Source: a virus
Direction: 5' to 3' (one strand)
IMG/VR virus record: IMGVR_UViG_2894314779_000001
Location: 1 to 45,929 of that record
DNA length: 45,929 nt
Shown here: piece by piece, positions 8,886 through 32,677 of the stretch
Numbering within the stretch: position 1 is the stretch's first letter
Layout of the letters: every line of letters starts with the position of its first letter
Notes under the pieces: model-generated
What the model was told of the DNA's origin: nothing
The model's database searches: none
The model's input: only the letters and a program-made list of their open reading frames with translations
Position numbers and translations under genes: made by a program

Positions 8886-9812
8886 ATGGCCACGATGACC
8901 CAAGCTTACTTTAGTCTGACTTATGACGGGCCAGCTGTCCGTGACGGCGAGATCGACGTCACCGATCTAGCTCCTGCTCTGTTGGCCCTCGGTCAAGCTG
9001 TGAAGGCAACGGGCAAGATCGTGCTTGGTCCTGACGCGGACGTGAGCCTTAAAGTTCGTACGACGAAGACAGGATCATTTGAGGTCCTGATGAGCGCCGT
9101 AACGAACGGTGACGTTGGTCTTGCATGGACCATAATAAAGCAGTTCTACCAAACAGACGACGTACAGACCGCAAAGGCCGTCGTAGAAACTCTCTTGATG
9201 GGAGGAACAGTTGCGGGCGCAGCAACTGCAGGCGTCGTTAAGTTTCTCAAGTGGCGCAAAGGTCGCCCAATAGAAAAGCAGGAAGCGCTACCGAACGGGG
9301 CGGCGAGAGTTACAATTGAGAATGTTGAAATAATTGTTGGCCCTGGTGTTCTTGAAGCTGCGCGCGATCCAATCGTTCGCTCAGGGATCGAAAAGGCTAT
9401 CGCGACCCCTCTCGAGAAGGACGGCATCGATATTGTTAAGTTCTCCAGCGAGGCAAGTGAGCAAGTAGTAGTTGATAAGTCGGAGCGCGTTCATTTCTTG
9501 AGCGCGGAAGCTTCTGAGTCTGAATTCACCTCTATTTACAACAAGGTGTTTTCGATAGTTACGTTGTCGTTTAAAGCGGGCAACAAATGGAAGCTTCATG
9601 ACGGGCAAGGTGCTCGAAACGTCACAATTTTGGACGAGGACTTCTTAGATCGTATCGACACGGGAGTTGCTCGCTTCGCAAAGGGAGATCTCTTGGTATG
9701 CCAAGTGAGAGAGACTGCCGTTCGCACAGACGGAGGCTTCAAATCTCAGTACGAGATCCTGAAGGTCATAGAGCACCGACCTTATAGGCCCCCAGAAACG
9801 CTCAGGCTGTGA
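8886..9812 (+). CDS. Orphan 308-aa protein of unknown function, AT-rich, converging on the repressor gene
   Basis: Long ORF with clear A/T-ending codon bias, unlike its neighbours. I recognise no family. Central hydrophobic stretch LLMGGTVAGAATAGVVKFL. Confidence 0.8.
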   Translation: MATMTQAYFSLTYDGPAVRDGEIDVTDLAPALLALGQAVKATGKIVLGPDADVSLKVRTTKTGSFEVLMSAVTNGDVGLAWTIIKQFYQTDDVQTAKAVVETLLMGGTVAGAATAGVVKFLKWRKGRPIEKQEALPNGAARVTIENVEIIVGPGVLEAARDPIVRSGIEKAIATPLEKDGIDIVKFSSEASEQVVVDKSERVHFLSAEASESEFTSIYNKVFSIVTLSFKAGNKWKLHDGQGARNVTILDEDFLDRIDTGVARFAKGDLLVCQVRETAVRTDGGFKSQYEILKVIEHRPYRPPETLRL

Positions 9813-9820
9813 GAAGGTAA

Positions 9821-10597
9821 CTAAAGCCTCGTTACTTTGCAGACGACGCGGCCGATTACCTGCAGATCCTCGGCAAGAATTTCATCGGTTCCATGTGCCG
9901 GGTTGTCCGACTTAATTCGTATCTTGACCGGATTGCTGCCCTTCACGACCTCTAGCCGCTTCACCGCTATTCCGATGCCATCGAAGATGGCGAACAGGCC
10001 GTCAGGAGAGGGTGCCGTCTGAGCACGGTTGATCATGACTCGATCCCCCGGCAGCAAAGTCGGTATCATCGAATCACCGTCGACTGGGATGAAGTCGACT
10101 TCTGCCTCTCGGGCTCGCAGCTCGGTGTGCAAATAGTCGACCGGCAGCCGCCACACCGCCCGCACTCCATCCAGAACCTTCCCATCGACCATCACGCCAG
10201 GCGCGAGGCCGCCCTCGCCAAGCCCCGCTACAACATTCCGTTCCGGCACCTCTCCCGGCTTCAAGTCTCCCCGCTGGATGCGGATTTCCACCGCATGGGC
10301 CGTGCGATCCTCGATGAACTCCGGATCCGGCTCGAACTCCTCGCCAACCGGAACCCTGCGGATAGTGTCCTCTTCCCCAATTTCAAACTTGAACAGCGAT
10401 CCCGGCTTCAAAGCGAACTCCTCCTCGAGCGCCGTCACCTCGGCAGCTCCTAGGGATTTTTTACGCCCCTTAAGGAAGTCGCGAAGGTAGTCCGGCCCGC
10501 GGCCAATCTTCCTCGCCAAATTGGTCGGATCGATCCCCCTTGAGTCAATCAGGGCGGAAAGGTTGGCTCGGAGTCGTTCAGGGCTGTGTGGTCGCAT
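9821..10597 (-). CDS. CI-type prophage repressor (XRE-like HTH plus S24/LexA-type autopeptidase domain)
   Basis: N-terminal LSALIDSRGIDPTNLARKIGRGPDYLRDFLKGRKK (HTH). C-terminal VDGDSMIPTLLPGDRVMIN ... GIAVKRL (Ser/Lys dyad). Start chosen at MRPHSPERL so that the operators stay intergenic. Confidence 0.85.
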   Translation of the reverse strand: MRPHSPERLRANLSALIDSRGIDPTNLARKIGRGPDYLRDFLKGRKKSLGAAEVTALEEEFALKPGSLFKFEIGEEDTIRRVPVGEEFEPDPEFIEDRTAHAVEIRIQRGDLKPGEVPERNVVAGLGEGGLAPGVMVDGKVLDGVRAVWRLPVDYLHTELRAREAEVDFIPVDGDSMIPTLLPGDRVMINRAQTAPSPDGLFAIFDGIGIAVKRLEVVKGSNPVKIRIKSDNPAHGTDEILAEDLQVIGRVVCKVTRL

Positions 10598-26785: not shown

Positions 26786-27226
26786 ATGGCAAAGCCTACC
26801 ACCGTATCGGCAGCGAAGCTGCTCATTCTGATCGGGGATGGTGCCACCCCCGAAGTGTTCGCCGCCCCCTGCGGCCTCACGTCCCGCGGCATCAACTTCT
26901 CAAAAGAGACGAACGACACTCAGGTTCCTGACTGCGCCGATCCGGACGCCCCGCAGTGGGTGGAGCGCGTGACGACCGCGTTGAGCGGCACGGTATCGGG
27001 CTCGGGTGTCCTGGCTCAGGAAGCCCTCGCGACCTGGCGCACGTTCTTCTTCTCGACCGAGTCCCGCAACTGCCGCATCCGGATCGACGGCGGCACCGGC
27101 TGGGGCCATTGGGAAGGCAAGTTCCTCTGCACGACCTTCAACGTGACCGGCGAGAACGGCGAGAAAGTCGGGGTTGAGATCGAGCTTCAGAACGACGGCG
27201 AAATCACGTGGGTGGCTGCCACATGA
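26786..27226 (+). CDS. Major tail (tube) protein, TP901-1/GTA-like
   Basis: 146 aa with an AGGAG RBS. It lies directly before the chaperone pair and resembles GTA-type major tail proteins. Confidence 0.8.
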   Translation: MAKPTTVSAAKLLILIGDGATPEVFAAPCGLTSRGINFSKETNDTQVPDCADPDAPQWVERVTTALSGTVSGSGVLAQEALATWRTFFFSTESRNCRIRIDGGTGWGHWEGKFLCTTFNVTGENGEKVGVEIELQNDGEITWVAAT

Positions 27227-27654
27227 GTTCTGATGCTTCGGTGTCGTTCGATTGGGCGGATGGCGAGTACACTTTCAGGCTTGCCATCGGCCAACTACGG
27301 GAGCTGCAGGACAAGACCGGCGTCGGTCCTTATGCTCTGCTTGCCCGCCTGATCGATGGTACATGGCGGGTGGATGACCTGCGCGAAACCATCCGCCTCG
27401 GTCTGATCGGCGGCAAGGTCGATCCGCTGAAGGCTCTTGGTCTCGTTCGGACCTATGTCGAGGGGCGCCCTCTCGCGGAGAGCGTCAACCCCGCCAAGGC
27501 GATCCTCTCGGCCGCCATCTTCGGCAATCCGGAAGATCCCGTGGGAAAACAGAAGCCGGAGGAGACCGACCGAGCGACGGACGGCTCCGCTTCTCCGAGC
27601 TCTACGGATCCGGAGCCGTCCTCGGGTGGACAGCCCGAGCCGTCGACGAACTGA
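27223..27654 (+). CDS. Tail assembly chaperone (lambda gpG / GTA g10 analogue), zero-frame product
   Basis: FDWADGEYTFRLAIGQLRELQDKTGVGPYALLARL is GTA-gp10-like. It lies between the major tail and tape measure regions. Confidence 0.8.
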   Translation: MSSDASVSFDWADGEYTFRLAIGQLRELQDKTGVGPYALLARLIDGTWRVDDLRETIRLGLIGGKVDPLKALGLVRTYVEGRPLAESVNPAKAILSAAIFGNPEDPVGKQKPEETDRATDGSASPSSTDPEPSSGGQPEPSTN

Positions 27655-27788
27655 GCCTCTGGGAACTCGCCGCTGCGATCGACGGGCACAACCGCGCACA
27701 TGCGGCCGAGGAAGAGCCTGTCGATCCTCTGACGGCCGAGGAGTTCGACGACATGCTCAGCCGTCACGCTGATTGGATCAACGGCTAG
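27223..27788 (+). CDS. Frameshifted tail chaperone fusion (gpGT analogue), about 188 aa, -1 shift at 27549
   Basis: The -1 frame extension reads ...LRFSELYGSGAVLGWTARAVDELSLWELAAAIDGHNRAHAAEEEPVDPLTAEEFDDMLSRHADWING. It has no start codon of its own and resembles the GTA g11-type segment. Confidence 0.6.
27543..27549 (+). promoter_or_regulatory. Programmed -1 ribosomal frameshift slippery heptamer G GGA AAA
   Basis: X XXY YYZ pattern in the zero frame (GTG GGA AAA). The -1 frame stays open from here to the TAG at 27786-27788. A possible stem GGAGACCG/CGGCTCC follows about 12 nt downstream. Confidence 0.65.
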
Positions 27789-27811
27789 CCTTCAGTGTCG
27801 GAGGGATTGGG

Positions 27812-27928
27812 CTAGCGAGGGCGGGGGTGGGGCTTTTCGGGGCGTGTCGCAACCCAATAGACAATCCCGCCGACAATCAGGGCACCAACAGGCGTAACCA
27901 TCAGAGACAGAAACTGCGCAGTGGTCAT
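27812..27928 (-). CDS. Tiny single-pass membrane peptide (38 aa), not in the ORF track
   Basis: Hand translation gives MTTAQFLSLMVTPVGALIVGGIVYWVATRPEKPHPRPR. Its ATG overlaps the stop of the upstream 73-aa gene (ATGA). Confidence 0.4.
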   Translation of the reverse strand: MTTAQFLSLMVTPVGALIVGGIVYWVATRPEKPHPRPR

Positions 27929-28146
27929 TTGAGGCTCCCAAGAATGGCCCTTGCCAGGAGATGTAAGACGACGCTGATGATTATGCAAATCACGCCGCTG
28001 ATAGAGGTTCCCAGCAACGAGGTCGCTGGCGAGCCATTGAGGGCGGAGATCATAGGGGCTAACCCGCCAACAGCAACCACGGCAATGGCAACACCATTCA
28101 GGTAAGTGGCTGAGAGCTTTGCTCTTTCGTTATGGATAAGGCTCAT
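27925..28146 (-). CDS. Small two-pass membrane protein (73 aa)
   Basis: Hydrophobic spans VAIAVVAVGGLAPMISAL and GVICIIISVVLHLLARAIL. ATGA overlap with the RHH gene stop. Confidence 0.65.
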   Translation of the reverse strand: MSLIHNERAKLSATYLNGVAIAVVAVGGLAPMISALNGSPATSLLGTSISGVICIIISVVLHLLARAILGSLK

Positions 28147-28466
28147 TCTTCGCCTTCAGAGGAGGGGGAGGGCTTGATGTCCCGTTTCTTGGTAGACGCC
28201 GGGGCAGCCTGGAAGAGTTCAAGCGCCTCTCGGATTTCCGCTAAGGTCTCTTGGTTGCGGTCGATTTGGTCAATGGCGACTTGGAGAAGGGCCTCCTTCG
28301 ACATTCTCGATAGGATATCGAACCTTTGCTCTTTGTCGAAGCTACGCTCCAGGCGCGCTAATATCTCGGCCGTCATAGAACGCCTGTTGGCTTCGGCGGC
28401 CTTCTCGACCTTGGCGCGAAGCTCTTCTGGGAAGCGCAGGCGGAAATGAGGATCTTCTCTCGACAT
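28143..28466 (-). CDS. Arc/Mnt-type ribbon-helix-helix repressor (107 aa)
   Basis: PHFRLRFPEELRAKVEKAAEANRRSMTAEILARLERSF matches the Arc-like DNA-binding domain. Start at MSREDPHF (28466). Confidence 0.75.
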   Translation of the reverse strand: MSREDPHFRLRFPEELRAKVEKAAEANRRSMTAEILARLERSFDKEQRFDILSRMSKEALLQVAIDQIDRNQETLAEIREALELFQAAPASTKKRDIKPSPSSEGEE

Positions 28467-28530
28467 GCCACACCTATGGCCAAAAAATCGTTTGACGTCG
28501 ATGCCACACGGTTGTACAAAGTAATGGCCA
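28465..28530. promoter_or_regulatory. Divergent control region of the two RHH genes, with repeated motifs
   Basis: ATGCCACAC at 28465-28473 and 28501-28509. ATGGCCA at 28476-28482 and 28524-28530. TTGACG (28492-28497), 17-nt spacer, TACAAA (28515-28520) facing the plus-strand gene. Confidence 0.45.
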
Positions 28531-28552
28531 TTGATTGGACAAGGAGATGTAT

Positions 28553-28774
28553 ATGGCGCGTGGCGACCCGCACATGAGGGTTCGCATCCCTCAAGATCTG
28601 AGAGAGCGGCTTCGGGCATCGGCCCAGACGAATTTTCGGACAATGAACGCTGAACTGGTGTTTCAGCTAGATCGCTCCCTGCCCCGGCAGGGGGAGAAGA
28701 ACGATGACGGGGTGAAGTTTGGCGACCGAGCCCCGTCATCGTCGCAATCGGCGCCGGTTACCAGCCGGGCCTAA
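28553..28774 (+). CDS. Arc-type ribbon-helix-helix repressor (73 aa)
   Basis: PHMRVRIPQDLRERLRASAQTNFRTMNAELVFQLDRSL. The ATG at 28553 follows AAGGAG; the track ORF starts at an upstream TTG. Confidence 0.75.
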   Translation: MARGDPHMRVRIPQDLRERLRASAQTNFRTMNAELVFQLDRSLPRQGEKNDDGVKFGDRAPSSSQSAPVTSRA

Positions 28775-28797
28775 CCACTCGATGAAAGGACCATCGA

Positions 28798-29682
28798 ATG
28801 ACTGACAGGAAAATGCCTCCGGCTCAGGCAGAAAACAAGAGCCGACCGAGGGTGGCCTACTTTGGAGCAAGCAAGCTCGGGATGGAGTGCGCTGTTCTCG
28901 ATGATGGCCGGAGCGGCTACATCCAGCGGAGCCTACAGACGGCTGTGGGGATGAACCGCAAACTTCCGGTTCGCGCTTTTGAGGATTTTTGCGCGAAATT
29001 CGCTCCTAAAGCTTTGGAATTCCTAGAGAAATCGGGTTCGCGCTTTGAAGAGGTCGTGATGCCCCACGGCGGCTCTGCCGTATGGGTTGAAGCAGGCTTT
29101 CTCACGAAGCTCGCCGGAGGCATCATCGACTCGGCGTTGCGTGGGCGATTGAAGGCCAACCAAAAGCACATGATCGCGCCATGTCAGGCTCTGATCGAGG
29201 CCTTGGGAGAAGTTGGTGAGGTCGCTCTGATCCACGAGGCTACCGGCTACCAGTACCACAGGGCCCCCGACGCCCTTCAGGATCTGTTCTCTAAACTGAT
29301 CCGCGAGACGGCTGCCGATTGGGAACGCCGGTTCCACCCGGAGTACTATTCGGCTCTCTGCAAGCTGTGGGGCTTCAAGTACGGGAACAAGCATCGGGCT
29401 CTGCCGCCAGTCATCGGCAAGGTGACGATGGATTGGGTCTATGGCGTCGTGTTCCCGCCTGAGATCATTGCGGAGGTGAAGTCTCGGGCCAAATCCGAGA
29501 AGCTGCATCAGTGGCTCACGGAGGAGGGCGGTCTAAAGCTCCTCGAAAAGCAGCGTGACGCTGTGATGATGATTGCTCGCTCATCGGTCGATTACAAAGA
29601 CTTCGAAGCTCGCTGCTCGGTTGCCTTCTATCGTCCCGGCCAGCAGGTTCTCATGAACTTCCCACAAGCGGAGGCGGCATGA
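28798..29682 (+). CDS. P63C-domain protein (294 aa), function unknown
   Basis: VALIHEATGYQYHRAPDALQDLFSKLIRETAADWERRFHPEYYSALCKLWGF matches my recollection of the P63C signature (vDEATGYQ ... W.k.FP.eFY). Confidence 0.8.
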   Translation: MTDRKMPPAQAENKSRPRVAYFGASKLGMECAVLDDGRSGYIQRSLQTAVGMNRKLPVRAFEDFCAKFAPKALEFLEKSGSRFEEVVMPHGGSAVWVEAGFLTKLAGGIIDSALRGRLKANQKHMIAPCQALIEALGEVGEVALIHEATGYQYHRAPDALQDLFSKLIRETAADWERRFHPEYYSALCKLWGFKYGNKHRALPPVIGKVTMDWVYGVVFPPEIIAEVKSRAKSEKLHQWLTEEGGLKLLEKQRDAVMMIARSSVDYKDFEARCSVAFYRPGQQVLMNFPQAEAA

Positions 29683-29852
29683 GCGACATCCGGAAGCAAA
29701 TCCGCGCCCAGATCATCACGTATATGGCCGAGGCAAAAGCTAATGGGCTCGACCCCTACAAGGCAGCCAGGAGAGCCTTCCCAGGGACGCCTGATAATGT
29801 TCTGATTTTGGCCCTCTGCGATTTGGACTCTCAGGAAGAAGAAGCTTGGTAG
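29679..29852 (+). CDS. Small hypothetical protein (57 aa), not in the ORF track
   Basis: Hand translation gives MSDIRKQIRAQIITYMAEAKANGLDPYKAARRAFPGTPDNVLILALCDLDSQEEEAW. ATGA overlap with the P63C gene stop. Confidence 0.45.
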   Translation: MSDIRKQIRAQIITYMAEAKANGLDPYKAARRAFPGTPDNVLILALCDLDSQEEEAW

Positions 29853-29991
29853 CAGTCGATGGAAAAGACCATCGATGGCGAGATAGTCCGCAGGGCGCTC
29901 GAAAACCAAGCCTAGAAAAGAAGCGGCCCTCGTCAGTGCTGGCACACCGGGCGAGGGCCTAACCCCAACAACTTAGATAGGATAAGTTGCC

Positions 29992-30312
29992 ATGGCTCAT
30001 GGACAACATACGACACGTCGCGCCCTTTTAGTAGGGGCGGCAGCCACAATTCTCGCCGGGAACGTTGCTGGAGCCCCTCTGTCTAAGCAGCCAGAAATGC
30101 TCCGCTTTCGTGCAGAGCAGCTGATCCAAGACGCTTTGCGCGCTCGCATAGCTCTTGTTCTTCACCCTGAGACAGGCGGAATTTGGGTGACGGAGCCCGT
30201 AGACGATCCTCAGACCGAGGAGGAAATGCAGCTCTGGCATCGGCTGAAGCGGCGGCTGCATGATGACCCGGTACTGAAGGCGGAGGTGAAAGCGGTTCTC
30301 GCAGCATCTTGA
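29992..30312 (+). CDS. Small exported protein with a Tat-type signal peptide (106 aa)
   Basis: MAHGQHTTRRALLVGAAATILAGNVAGAPLS contains the twin-arginine motif TRRALL followed by a hydrophobic region. Confidence 0.7.
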   Translation: MAHGQHTTRRALLVGAAATILAGNVAGAPLSKQPEMLRFRAEQLIQDALRARIALVLHPETGGIWVTEPVDDPQTEEEMQLWHRLKRRLHDDPVLKAEVKAVLAAS

Positions 30313-30317
30313 AGCAC

Positions 30318-30347
30318 AAAGGGCGCTCTATGGGGTGCCCTTTTTCT
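30318..30347. terminator. Bidirectional intrinsic terminator between convergent genes
   Basis: AAAGGGC ... GCCCTTT stem (30318-30324 and 30337-30343) is flanked by an A-run and TTTTTCTC. It overlaps the last codons of the minus-strand gene. Confidence 0.55.
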
Positions 30348-30717
30348 CAACCCAGCCACGGGCCACACTTCCCTCCGGCCCGTACTTCGTCAGCAATTCA
30401 TAGCAGGCGCGTGGCTTGTTCGGTTTGTTTGGTTGTGAGTCAAGCTCAATGTAACGATTGATCCACTTGGAACGCGAAACGTCGTTCTCGACTATAAATC
30501 TGCCCTTCTGTGAGAAATCGAAGTCATCTGCACATAATTCGATGAGGAATGCTGCGTAAGCTACATGTTCAATTAAATCTCTGTCGCGTTTTTCTTTTGC
30601 CTCTATTTGCTCAGCTTCAGACTTATACCGCTGAATTTCGCTCTGACTGGACGCCGGAAGCGCGAAAAGCAGGCTGGAAATACATAGTAAGGCGGATCTG
30701 TTCACAGGATACCTCAT
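30328..30717 (-). CDS. Small secreted protein with a Sec signal peptide (129 aa), very AT-rich
   Basis: MRYPVNRSALLCISSLLFALPASSQSE signal sequence. Its start codon overlaps the tape measure start on the other strand. Confidence 0.7.
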   Translation of the reverse strand: MRYPVNRSALLCISSLLFALPASSQSEIQRYKSEAEQIEAKEKRDRDLIEHVAYAAFLIELCADDFDFSQKGRFIVENDVSRSKWINRYIELDSQPNKPNKPRACYELLTKYGPEGSVARGWVEKKGTP

Positions 30718-32677
30718 GGCCCAAGAACTTGAGACGTTGGTCGTTCGCCTCGAAGCCCAAATGCGGAGCTACGAGCGCGAGATGAATCGTGCCCGCACTG
30801 TAACAGCCAGGAACATGCGGGCAATCGAGAAGGATACCGTTACGTCGGGTCAAAAGTTCACGGCCATTATGACGAACGCTGGGCGGACGGCCGCGGCTGG
30901 TCTGGTTACTGGGCTCTCGGTCCTAGGGGCCGGTGGCCTTGTGGCAGGTTTAGGGTTCTCAGCCCTTGTGGATACCGCCCGGGCCGCAGCGGCTGAGCTG
31001 GCTAAAATTGGAGACGTCGCCGAAAAGGTTGGAGTCACCGCAGAGGCGCTCCAAGCTCTCCAGTTCGCGAGTGAACAGAACGCCGGCAGTGTGGAGGCGG
31101 TGAATTCAGGGCTAGTCCGCTTTGCAGCCGGGTTGGCTGACGCGAGCGCCGGAGGAGGGGAGCTTTACAAGATCCTCCAGGCCAACAATGTCGCCTTCAC
31201 AGATGCTAACGGAAGGCTGCTGCCGGTGCTTTCCCTGCTTGAGCAGTTTGCCGATCTAGTCAAGAACGCGCGAACCCCTCAGGAGCAGCTAGAACTGGCC
31301 GTCCGTGCCTTCGGGCGGGCAGCAGGCCCTGAGCTACTCGGGATGCTCAAACAAGGTTCAGCCGGGCTCCGGGAGATGATGCAGGAGGCGAAGGACTCCG
31401 GCGCGGTCCTCGAAAATGAGCTGATCGAAAAGGCGCGGCGTATTGATGATCAGTTTGCAAAGATCGCCCGAACAGTAGGGATGAATGTCAAGGGAGCGAT
31501 CGTTTCCGCCGCCGCGTCCTTGGGTGAGTTCGCTGCCCTTCTCGATAAGGTAAAGGGGTATCGAGAGAACCTGGGAGGGGCGAATGTGCCAAGCCCGGAA
31601 GAGTTCGGCTTGGATCAGCAGATCAAAACGATCCAGGGACTTCTTGCTCGGCAGAACGGGCGGCGTACGAGCATCACTGCAGATAAAGAAGCTGAACTCC
31701 GCGACCTCTTGGAATTGAGAAAGCAACGCGCTCTCAAGAACCTCCCCGCGCCACAGGTCCAGACGCAGCCCGCGCTCCCATCCCTGGTCGGCACTCAGCC
31801 GCCGCAGCCGGCAAAGCCGACTATCCTGCCGGCTTCCGGCGACGGCATGAGCAAGGCGCAGAAGGAGGCCGAGCGCCTGGCTGAGAGCTATCAGCAGATG
31901 GTGCTCGTCGCGAACCAGCGTATCGAGAACCTTCGCCTGGAACAGCAGACCCTAGGGCTGACGACCGCCGAAGCCGAGCGGTTGCGGTTCGAGCAGGATC
32001 TCTTGAACGATGCTCAGCGGGACGGGATCACCCTGACCGACGCTCAACGTGCGACGATCTCCCAACTTGCCGCCACCTATGGCACCCTGTCGGCTGCGCT
32101 TGAGACGGCGGAAGAAGCCCACGCCAAGCAGCAACAGATGATGCAGGACTTTCAGGGCATCGCCACGGAGAGCCTGCAGGGCATTGCTGCCGACATCATG
32201 GCCGGCGTGGACGCCGCGGAGGCGCTCGACAACGCCCTCAAGCGTGTCGCGGCCCGGCTCATTGACATGGCGCTGGATCAAGCCATCACGAGCCTGTTCA
32301 AGAACATGAACGGGGCGGGCGGGGGCAATTTCCTGTCGAGCATCGTCGGAGCGATCACAGGCCAGCGTGCTTCGGGCGGCTCGGTTCAATCGGGCGGCAC
32401 CTATCTTGTCGGTGAGAATGGCCCTGAGCTCCTGCGAATGGGCCGCAACGGCATGATCAAGCCAAACTCTGCTCTGGGGAAAGGGGCGGGCGGCGGAGGC
32501 CTTCAGGTCGTGGTCAACAACAACGCCAACACCCAGGTTTCCACACGTCAGACGCAAGGCCCGCAGGGGCCGCGCCTTGAGGTGCAGATCGACGAGATGG
32601 TCGCTGCCGCTCTCATGAGGGGGGCCAAGACCGGGGACGCTCTCAAGGCCATGCGGCGCAACCGGATGGGAGGCTGA
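30716..32677 (+). CDS. Tail tape measure protein
   Basis: 653 aa, Ala/Gly/Leu/Gln-rich and helical, with hydrophobic GLVTGLSVLGAGGLVAGLGF and the block AEALQALQFASEQNAGS. Canonical position. Confidence 0.9.
   Translation: MAQELETLVVRLEAQMRSYEREMNRARTVTARNMRAIEKDTVTSGQKFTAIMTNAGRTAAAGLVTGLSVLGAGGLVAGLGFSALVDTARAAAAELAKIGDVAEKVGVTAEALQALQFASEQNAGSVEAVNSGLVRFAAGLADASAGGGELYKILQANNVAFTDANGRLLPVLSLLEQFADLVKNARTPQEQLELAVRAFGRAAGPELLGMLKQGSAGLREMMQEAKDSGAVLENELIEKARRIDDQFAKIARTVGMNVKGAIVSAAASLGEFAALLDKVKGYRENLGGANVPSPEEFGLDQQIKTIQGLLARQNGRRTSITADKEAELRDLLELRKQRALKNLPAPQVQTQPALPSLVGTQPPQPAKPTILPASGDGMSKAQKEAERLAESYQQMVLVANQRIENLRLEQQTLGLTTAEAERLRFEQDLLNDAQRDGITLTDAQRATISQLAATYGTLSAALETAEEAHAKQQQMMQDFQGIATESLQGIAADIMAGVDAAEALDNALKRVAARLIDMALDQAITSLFKNMNGAGGGNFLSSIVGAITGQRASGGSVQSGGTYLVGENGPELLRMGRNGMIKPNSALGKGAGGGGLQVVVNNNANTQVSTRQTQGPQGPRLEVQIDEMVAAALMRGAKTGDALKAMRRNRMGG

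Follow-up and report, generated by a model that had tools for sequence, protein, structure and literature searches.

A putative P22 immI-type cassette with a P63C-domain gene in the tail operon of a Microvirga prophage

The immI region of Salmonella phage P22 is the closest described counterpart of the locus considered here, in which a divergent pair of ribbon-helix-helix (RHH) regulator genes and a P63C-domain gene interrupt the tail operon of a virus genome (IMG/VR record IMGVR_UViG_2894314779_000001, positions 1 to 45,929; this whole stretch of 45,929 nucleotides is called the window). In the P22 record, late genes 7, 20 and 16 are read rightward, followed by sieA, orf59a and mnt, which are read leftward. 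A 90-bp region carrying Pant, Pmnt, O-arc and O-mnt comes next, then arc, sar and ant, read rightward, with gene 9 after them. The P22 region is a variable "ant moron" within the late operon and is largely not expressed from it (PMC2629481; PMC8022706).

Two further proteins bear on the P63C gene. BstA is an abortive-infection protein of roughly 300 amino acids (aa) with two domains, the N-terminal one KilA-N-like, and is encoded downstream of cI (PMC8585504). The second is p63 of phage Mx8, which carries a P63C domain, as does the window protein. Mx8 p63 is said to have been made the founder of the domain by Iyer, Koonin and Aravind in 2002. Literature searches for P63C and PF10546 found no more than passing mentions in annotation, in keeping with the first-pass annotation of the window, which had described the domain as lacking an established function.

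Layout of the locus and its regulators compared with P22 immI

The window is from a GTA/HK97-like (GTA, gene transfer agent), long-tailed prophage of the alphaproteobacterium Microvirga arsenatis. The genes of the switch and those flanking it are the following; ORF is open reading frame, and RHH1, RHH2, tm73, tm38 and orf57 are our names.

27208-27654, plus strand: tail assembly chaperone (Phage_TAC_11, E 4e-24)
27208..27788, plus strand: left flank, including a small ORF 3' of the tail chaperone, which ends at 27788
27812..27928, minus strand: tm38, 38 aa, one transmembrane (TM) segment, begins MTTAQFLSL, ATGA-coupled to tm73; a possible gene, tentatively read from the sequence
27925..28146, minus strand: tm73, 73 aa, two TM segments, ATGA-coupled to the RHH1 stop; read from the sequence
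28143..28466, minus strand: RHH1, Mnt-like, 107 aa counted from MSREDPH (Pfam Arc PF03869, E 7e-16)
28467..28552, no strand: divergent control region with operator-like repeats, exactly 86 bp between start codons
28553..28774, plus strand: RHH2, in the position of Arc, 73 aa (Pfam Arc, E 1.4e-9), with a ribosome-binding site (RBS), AAGGAG, at 28541-28546
28798..29682, plus strand: P63C gene, 294 aa (PF10546, E 1.2e-17)
29679..29852, plus strand: orf57, 57 aa, ATGA overlap with the P63C stop; read from the sequence
30716..32677, plus strand: tape measure protein, 653 aa (ORF; the proteins of loci L173 and L174 are 93% and 83% identical)

The order is the rightward chaperone; tm38, tm73 and RHH1 leftward; 86 bp; RHH2, the P63C gene and orf57 rightward; and the tape measure gene. 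The first-pass annotation had described a divergent Arc/Mnt-type RHH pair around an 86-bp control region, a 294-aa P63C gene and a coupled 57-aa ORF. All of these are present: both RHH proteins match Pfam Arc with scores above its cutoff, the size of the control region (28467-28552) is exact, the P63C gene scores 64.7 bits with PF10546, and orf57 overlaps its stop by ATGA. Absent from that annotation was the continuation of the minus arm past RHH1 into the two small membrane ORFs. It had also held that the layout copies P22 immI, and in this respect the regulator homology, the gene order and the effector slot all match.

The two loci are alike in placing divergent Arc/Mnt RHH genes across a short interval, 90 bp in P22 and 86 bp in the window. 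In both, the long RHH gene lies opposite the effector together with small or membrane-protein ORFs, and the short one heads the effector operon. The effectors are similar in length, 300 aa for P22 Ant and 294 aa for the P63C protein, and the unit sits in the late operon in both cases. However, the effectors differ in kind, P22_AR_N plus P22_AR_C in P22 and P63C in the window, with no homology detected between them. The gap from short RHH gene to effector is 23 bp in the window and 68 bp, with sar, in P22, and the coupled 57-aa ORF after the effector is an extra that P22 immI does not have. The sites differ as well: the window unit occupies the junction of chaperone and tape measure genes in a phage of an alphaproteobacterial host, whereas the P22 unit is flanked by genes 16 and 9. 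A counterpart of sar is not apparent, as there is no minus-strand promoter-like site in the 23 bp that separate RHH2 from the P63C gene or just inside these genes. The only minus-strand promoter call (28339-28312) falls inside RHH1, and the one weak minus-strand hairpin (28830-28814), which lies just inside the P63C gene, comes with no promoter. Comparison of tm73 with orf59a and sieA of P22 found no sequence similarity, and the likeness is one of position only.

RHH1 consists of an N-terminal RHH and a 60-aa helical, charged C-terminal extension. Blastp aligns 45 aa of RHH1 with P22 Mnt (E 4e-12) and with P22 Arc (E 7e-11), at 46.7% identity in either case; for RHH2 and Mnt, the identity is 41.8% across 55 aa (E 3e-12). 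As a tblastn query, RHH1 matches genes annotated mnt in P22-like phages. Thus, on sequence, the two regulators are very probably homologs of those of immI. RHH2 heads the effector operon, 23 bp upstream of the P63C gene, and has a 28-aa tail after its RHH. This tail (aa 45-73) contains a weak motif, [AT]TG[EK]xL..xP[AV]AA, that is found in 6 of the 8 P63C cassettes described below. The motif is seen in most alphaproteobacterial cassettes, whatever the effector, and also in loci L239 (797-1063) and L182 (855-1112).

By orthology, the cassettes' RHH1 proteins make up a single group, and most RHH2 proteins best match another RHH2. A recent duplication of one regulator into the other was considered and rejected, since the two proteins fall in separate orthologous groups; the pair is old. 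The outward-facing residues of the β-strand, which read the DNA, are H-R-R in both RHH1 and RHH2 of the window, compared with H-N-R in P22 Mnt and Q-N-R in Arc. H-R-R is likewise found in both proteins of L117; the pairs are K-V-R and K-L-R in L082 and R-T-R and R-T-R in L090, so that the residues differ between cassettes. Within cassettes, the RHH1 and RHH2 residues co-vary (8 matches out of 16; permutation p 0.0036, with no correction for relatedness).

The control region and its transcript contain the following signals.

28465..28473, plus strand: first copy of the operator-like repeat ATGCCACAC, covering the RBS and start codon of RHH1 (repeat search)
28501..28509, plus strand: second copy of ATGCCACAC, within the spacer of the promoter-like site that faces rightward (repeat search)
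28476..28482, plus strand: second repeat type, ATGGCCA, copy 1 (read from the sequence)
28524..28531, plus strand: ATGGCCA, copy 2, within the palindrome ATGGCCAT (read from the sequence)
28492..28520, plus strand: tentative promoter-like site of the RHH2-P63C-orf57 operon, TTGACG-N17-TACAAA (read from the sequence)
29852..29879, plus strand: hairpin directly after orf57 (RNA fold)
29925..29959, plus strand: GC-rich hairpin, 10-bp stem, no T-run after it (RNA fold)

Repeated 7-mers in the window's control region exceed those of 99% of shuffled sequences (p 0.0105). Among the 7 other cassettes, all of which have motifs of their own, the same shuffle test gives p ≤ 0.001 in 5, and overall an excess of 7-mer repeats is found in 6 of 8 control regions, with motifs present in two to four copies. 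Copy 2 of ATGCCACAC is placed much as O-arc is within the annotated Pant promoter of P22. ATGCCACAC agrees at 7 of 9 positions with the fourfold repeat ATGACGCAC of L117, and the RHH proteins of both cassettes are H-R-R. In L022, the control region repeats CCACGGTGG, the core of the Mnt operator O-mnt of P22, and GGTGCG is common to the control regions of the R-x-R cassettes L085 and L090. The joint variation of reading residues and repeats argues that the repeats are operators and that RHH1 and RHH2 read the same half-site, which is a prediction from sequence.

Of the 8 cassette control regions, 7 have a TTGAC hexamer on the plus strand. The consensus promoter scan did not call TTGACG-N17-TACAAA and listed TCGACA-17-AAAAAT at 28460-28488 instead. 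A search for LexA boxes (GTTC-N7-GTTC) found none in the control region, and the window as a whole is not enriched in them. Downstream, the fold of 29850-29985 has a minimum free energy of -46.1 kcal/mol (z -2.88), and the hairpin at 29925..29959 is the likely end of the rightward operon. A terminator-like call on the minus strand (27892-27866) was disregarded, as it lies inside tm38.

The core of the insertion is best explained as an immI-type "ant moron", a self-contained, horizontally mobile regulatory cassette in the tail operon. For this explanation together with the mechanism proposed below, an Ant-like action of P63C included, we estimate a probability of about 0.5. That the RHH pair controls the P63C operon is, by the same comparisons, a good deal likelier.

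Recurrence of the cassette and the site where it is inserted

The two-RHH P63C cassette is present in phage contigs that are unrelated to one another, at least eight in all. Its carriers are the window, L022 (Stenotrophomonas), L082-84/87, L085, L086, L090, L117/L236 and L131. The P63C proteins of these cassettes are 42-69% identical to that of the window, and from 42% to 91% identical among themselves. Both RHH genes are present in every listed Arc-family cassette, and the cassettes sit in different phage late regions. The recurrence shows, at the level of gene content and similarity, a conserved mobile unit that travels between unrelated phages.

The arms of the cassette vary. A small TM ORF overlaps the stop of the RHH1 ortholog by 3 nt in L086, L117/L236 and L022, and in L131 a homologous TM ORF lies further downstream of RHH1. 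For tm38, a weak PHROG match (E 0.0045) was the only one, and no homolog was found among the cassette loci compared. In L082/L083 (4679-5208), a HicA toxin and a 103-aa partner follow RHH1, and there are no membrane ORFs; the leftward arm thus carries exchangeable cargo. On the rightward arm, L022, L081, L082, L086 and L090 have an ORF of variable sequence that either overlaps the stop of the P63C gene or adjoins it, and orf57 is weakly similar (E 0.025) to the 82-aa ORF abutting the P63C stop in L086. RHH2 is tail-less and 49-54 aa long in L022 and L131, both of which have P63C. At L081 (5064-5928), a P63C gene 68% identical to that of the window is preceded by a divergent pair of RHH-like ORFs that are not of the Arc family, which looks as if non-orthologous regulators had taken the place of the Arc-family pair in an unchanged layout. 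The P63C gene of L001 (6001-6898), from Chelatococcus, is split into two overlapping ORFs, either by a frameshift, making it a pseudogene, or by a sequencing error.

What the Arc/Mnt pair controls elsewhere was assessed by scanning viral contigs in IMG/VR with the RHH profile, which gave 80 loci. The pair is divergent in 63 of these, with a long RHH protein of typically ~145 aa facing a short one of 45-72 aa, and 57 of the 63 have a close ORF after the short RHH gene. The slot is filled as follows.

30 of 57 loci: Bro-N plus P22_AR_C
14 of 57 loci: P22_AR_N
5 of 57 loci: Bro-N alone (L251 judged by eye, not scanned)
2 of 57 loci: ORF6N
1 of 57 loci: KilA-N plus ORF6C
1 of 57 loci: P63C
4 of 57 loci: unassigned ORF

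A relative of P22 Ant or a Bro-N, ORF6N or KilA-N protein hence occupies the slot in 52 of 57 loci, and 44 of the 57 effectors share a domain with P22 Ant itself. P22 late-gene homologs accompany only 1 of the 80 loci, and GC content runs from 0.36 to 0.64, with most at 0.36-0.53; thus, the design extends beyond P22-like phages. These loci share the two-repressor layout with the window, and membrane ORFs often follow the long RHH gene. They differ from it in their effector families and in the long RHH protein, which at ~145 aa has a different C-terminal domain.

A pair of loci links the two sets. L236 and L239 have orthologous regulators and are 76.8% identical in nucleotide sequence across RHH2, the control region and the N-terminus of RHH1. 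Homology stops near the RHH2 stop codon, after which L236 has P63C and L239 has a P22_AR_N protein. As aligned, this pair is a natural cargo swap and the most direct evidence for the equivalence of the two effectors' slots.

The insertion site was examined in close relatives of the window, found with the tape measure protein as query and aligned to the window as DNA. Alignment with L173, L174 and L176 stops at 27778-27812 and resumes at 30313-30711, with a different content in between in each relative. L176 (4966-4994) has 29 bp and no gene between the chaperone and tape measure genes. L174 (4520-4986) has 467 bp with one membrane/zinc-ribbon ORF. L173 (2078-4597) has 2.5 kb, comprising a Gp49-like toxin, an HTH_3 protein, a 208-aa ORF and an ORF that the window also carries (orf129, see below). 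In Pseudomonas phage YMC11/02/R656 (L181:5404-5991), an Imm_superinfect gene is found at the same junction. Since relatives are empty or differently filled here, the junction is, as the alignments have it, a hotspot for cargo, and the window's island is a true insertion at a moron locus.

This accessory island extends over 27789..30715, or 2,927 bp, and splits the tail chaperone genes from the tape measure gene. GC content is 0.46-0.60 between 27.8 and 30.7 kb and 0.62-0.67 on either flank; GC at third codon positions is 0.53-0.69 in island genes and 0.72-0.82 in structural genes. The first-pass annotation's lower-GC block of about 2.9 kb with A/T-ending codons is thus borne out by both measures across 27789-30715, and its view that chaperone and tape measure genes are normally adjacent agrees with the 29 bp in L176. 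Its chaperone end at 27788 holds as the boundary of the junction, although the gene with the Phage_TAC_11 match itself ends at 27654 and it is the small ORF that ends at 27788.

The P63C protein and the readings of its role

The PF10546 match of the P63C protein (64.7 bits against a cutoff of 26.1) covers aa 164-248. An N-domain of about aa 14-155, including the motif IHEATGYQ, precedes it. At NCBI, a Microvirga arsenatis protein is 100% identical to it, which assigns the window to a prophage of that species. The protein also matches phrog_2384, a family of unknown function, over its full length (E 6e-54). The family comprises 2,301 clusters at 50% identity (E ≤ 1e-3) in a library of 1.84 billion representatives, and most members have two domains and a length of 280-360 aa. 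In the broad family, no polar position of the C-domain is invariant, acidic and histidine residues included, so it would be a binding module rather than an enzyme; conservation, in other words, suggests binding over catalysis.

The AlphaFold2 (AF2) model of the N-domain is confident (pLDDT, the predicted local distance difference test, 92; pTM, the predicted template-modelling score, 0.85). The C-terminal part is helical, and the full-length model has a pLDDT of 76. Foldseek searches of the PDB with the full-length and N-domain models gave no related solved fold; the best hit, LuxS at a template-modelling score (TM) of 0.3, is taken as chance. A sequence-profile search of the PDB gave leucine dehydrogenase only (E 0.19). 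In a Foldseek search of BFVD, Mx8 p63 is the second-best match (E 8e-4), accompanied by weak matches to Bro-N and KilA proteins. By hhalign, the best remote match of the N-domain (aa 25-169) is BstA aa 23-168, with P 7e-4 and a probability of 27%. The same comparison gives P 0.016 over 37 columns with Bro-N and P 0.29 with P22_AR_N; as a scale, Bro-N against P22_AR_N gives P 9e-5. A Pfam scan finds no KilA-N, Bro-N, PF26567, toxin or nuclease family in the protein, and PADLOC, run on all island proteins and three P63C homologs, found no match, its BstA model included. Profile and structure searches of the kind that the first-pass annotation had suggested placed the regulators in the Arc family and gave the P63C protein no known fold or role.

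In related cassettes, the slot of P63C is filled by antirepressor-type proteins. By this analogy, P63C is a candidate antirepressor, a functional analog of Ant; this is the likeliest single reading, with chances slightly short of even. The cassette might then work as follows. In a lysogen, RHH1 would be made from a leftward promoter with one or two small membrane proteins. By binding repeats that overlap the rightward promoter, it would keep the RHH2-P63C-orf57 operon silent. Loss of RHH1, or entry of the DNA into a cell that has none, would let the rightward promoter fire, and the short RHH2, as the first product of the operon, would shut the operon again, leaving a pulse of P63C. Since the reading residues are the same in both proteins of most cassettes, RHH1 and RHH2 probably share or compete for operator half-sites. 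P63C, with a targeting N-domain in addition to its C-domain, would inactivate a phage repressor by binding, whether the phage's own S24-type CI, that of resident prophages, or both. The phage's own repressor, the presumed target in that case, is the following.

9821..10597, minus strand: primary CI-type repressor, Peptidase_S24 domain (Pfam, E 5e-12)

An ORF of 308 aa at 8886-9812 of the window, on the plus strand, is convergent with CI and has no Pfam match.

Several findings weigh against an immI-type module with P63C as its antirepressor. Homology between P63C and P22 Ant is undetected by blastp (E > 0.7), hhalign (P 0.91) or Pfam, which assigns P63C alone to the window protein and P22_AR_N plus P22_AR_C to Ant. 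The S24 domain of CI means that an antirepressor is not required for SOS induction. In P22, likewise, SOS induction needs no antirepressor. The repeats of the window's own control region are of modest significance (p 0.01), a leftward promoter was not found and the consensus scan gives no confident promoter assignment, and the 28-aa tail of RHH2 has no counterpart in Arc. Lastly, P63C homologs without RHH genes sit in lysogeny-module positions. The full-length homolog orf23 of the P22-like Salmonella phage ST104 (L167:3288-4367) comes directly after cI, filling the cI-N hotspot between cI and gene 24, where its sister phage BTP1 has bstA (L170:28112-29035). Streptococcus phage Javan515 has a P63C homolog between repressor and integrase, and that of Gordonia phage Petra (gp34) adjoins integrase and repressor. 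Others reside in structural operons or early replication modules without a regulator of their own. The nin region of an Stx1a phage has one next to Roi; L088 and L089 (head-tail genes), vB_E192a (before the baseplate genes) and YMC11 have one among structural genes; and about 50 betaproteobacterial prophages (L002-L056) have one in a conserved AAA_24/DUF6511 early replication module. The 80 genome loci with P63C genes were considered as evidence against a link to RHH genes in general and set aside in that role, because about 50 of them belong to a single syntenic lineage of betaproteobacteria and so count as one context.

Some of these homologs have settings of their own. The N-termini of ST104 orf23 and BstA have in common the stretch VL-DG-x-L-x-R-x-L-x-x-x-G (BLASTP E 0.038). 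In L002-L056, the P63C gene follows an AAA_24 ATPase and a DUF669-like ORF and is ATGA-coupled to a DUF6511 zinc-ribbon ORF, with no RHH gene nearby. The distant homologs of L077 (92-2000) and L080 (4893-6846), with ~30% identity, overlap at their start the last 7 nt of an IS1595-family transposase gene (DDE_Tnp_IS1595, E 1e-40) and may be passenger genes. In gp070 of YMC11/02/R656 (L181:2680-3402), the P63C C-domain is joined to a Phage_pRha domain. This fusion, located between the tail completion and tail terminator genes, is without the DEATGYQ motif and the usual N-domain. A C-domain profile search returned short P63C-only proteins only and is no census of domain fusions.

The same immI-type switch could hold a BstA-like abortive-infection or exclusion protein aimed at phage DNA replication. 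P63C would be off, or kept low by autoregulation through the RHH pair, and the small membrane proteins would be superinfection-exclusion factors. We think this rather unlikely. It would suit the homologs in lysogeny-expressed hotspots (ST104 orf23, Javan515, Petra), as a P63C protein encoded next to its own cI would be self-defeating as an antirepressor of that repressor, and defence or exclusion fits better. BstA and P63C are both two-domain proteins of ~300 aa whose N-domains align weakly (P 7e-4), the best remote match that P63C has, and cargo at the hotspot includes the toxin-antitoxin pair of L173, the membrane/zinc-ribbon ORF of L174 and Imm_superinfect of YMC11/02/R656. However, the alignment has a probability of 27%, Foldseek gave no related solved fold, and neither the PADLOC model of BstA nor PF26567, the C-domain of all BstA homologs, is matched by the window protein, which has PF10546 in its place. 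BstA lies next to cI, whereas the window's P63C gene is RHH-flanked and 18 kb from CI, and no aba-like element was identified. The contents of the slot also favor antirepression over this reading, given the 44 of 57 effectors with a domain of P22 Ant and the P22_AR_N protein as partner in the cargo swap. Less likely still is that P63C is a DNA-binding regulator like Rha, Roi or Bro, timed by the RHH pair, which would act on transcription or replication of phage or host and not on a repressor protein. The Phage_pRha-P63C fusion, the homolog beside Roi, the early replication modules of the ~50 betaproteobacterial prophages and the weak BFVD matches to Bro-N and KilA point in its direction, but no DNA-binding fold is assigned (a model of pLDDT 92 reaches a TM of 0.3 at best in the PDB), the hhalign match to Bro-N is limited to P 0.016 over 37 columns, and the need for a two-repressor switch would go unexplained. 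Of similarly low probability is a broader proposal, in which the Mnt/Arc switch would serve generally as a portable device for holding dangerous phage effectors in check, and P63C, with its ~2,300 clusters, would be a new class of such effectors, BstA-like abortive-infection or replication-targeting proteins and not antirepressors.

RHH2 and P63C might also be an addiction pair resembling type II toxin-antitoxin systems, in which the disordered tail of RHH2 neutralises P63C and RHH1 is an unrelated neighbour. An RHH gene directly upstream of a larger ORF (23-bp gap), a tail motif kept in 6 of 8 cassettes and the toxin-antitoxin cargo of L173 at the same hotspot are what such a pair would lead one to expect, but the reading is very unlikely: L022 and L131 pair P63C with a tail-less RHH2, RHH1 always accompanies RHH2 and has its reading residues in common with it, many P63C genes have no adjacent RHH gene, and no known toxin fold or family is matched. 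The tail as a P63C-binding antitoxin was itself rejected, as its motif also occurs with the P22_AR_N effector of L239 (and in L182) and so is not P63C-specific. The most improbable reading is that P63C is a selfish, homing-type mobile gene with the RHH genes as passengers. Sporadic spread, tight insertions between phage genes in L088, L089, YMC11 and vB_E192a, and distant homologs overlapping IS1595 transposase genes would accord with homing, but there is no nuclease family or motif, the C-domain is without invariant acidic or histidine residues, and homing requires no conserved switch of two repressors.

If P63C is an antirepressor under an immI-type switch, the module would add a second, RecA-independent layer to the lysis-lysogeny decision and a route for cross-talk among co-resident phages. 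If, instead, it is a defence effector whose silencing by the Mnt-like repressor is lost or overridden at superinfection, the immI switch would be a phage sensor for defence. The P63C family has been without a function for over twenty years, and its position in an antirepressor slot makes a large orphan family testable. The immI design, known mainly from P22-like podophages, appears here as a widespread, modular cassette with an exchangeable effector. Operators appear to co-evolve with their repressors, and the cassettes are a natural set in which to follow changes in RHH operator specificity.

Remaining cargo of the island

The island consists of three units, namely the leftward RHH1 arm, the rightward RHH2-P63C-orf57 operon and unrelated cargo made up of two further genes, orf106 and orf129.

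29992..30312, plus strand: orf106, with a twin-arginine-like N-terminus (TRRALLVGAAA); separate cargo, outside the switch
30328..30717, minus strand: orf129, with a signal-peptide-like N-terminus and GC 0.48; separate cargo

Family searches gave no match for orf106 and none for orf129. Both look like separate morons. orf129 is common to the window and L173, with ~90% nucleotide identity, and the other cargo of L173 is different. The two genes are convergent and share a hairpin at ~30318-30345.

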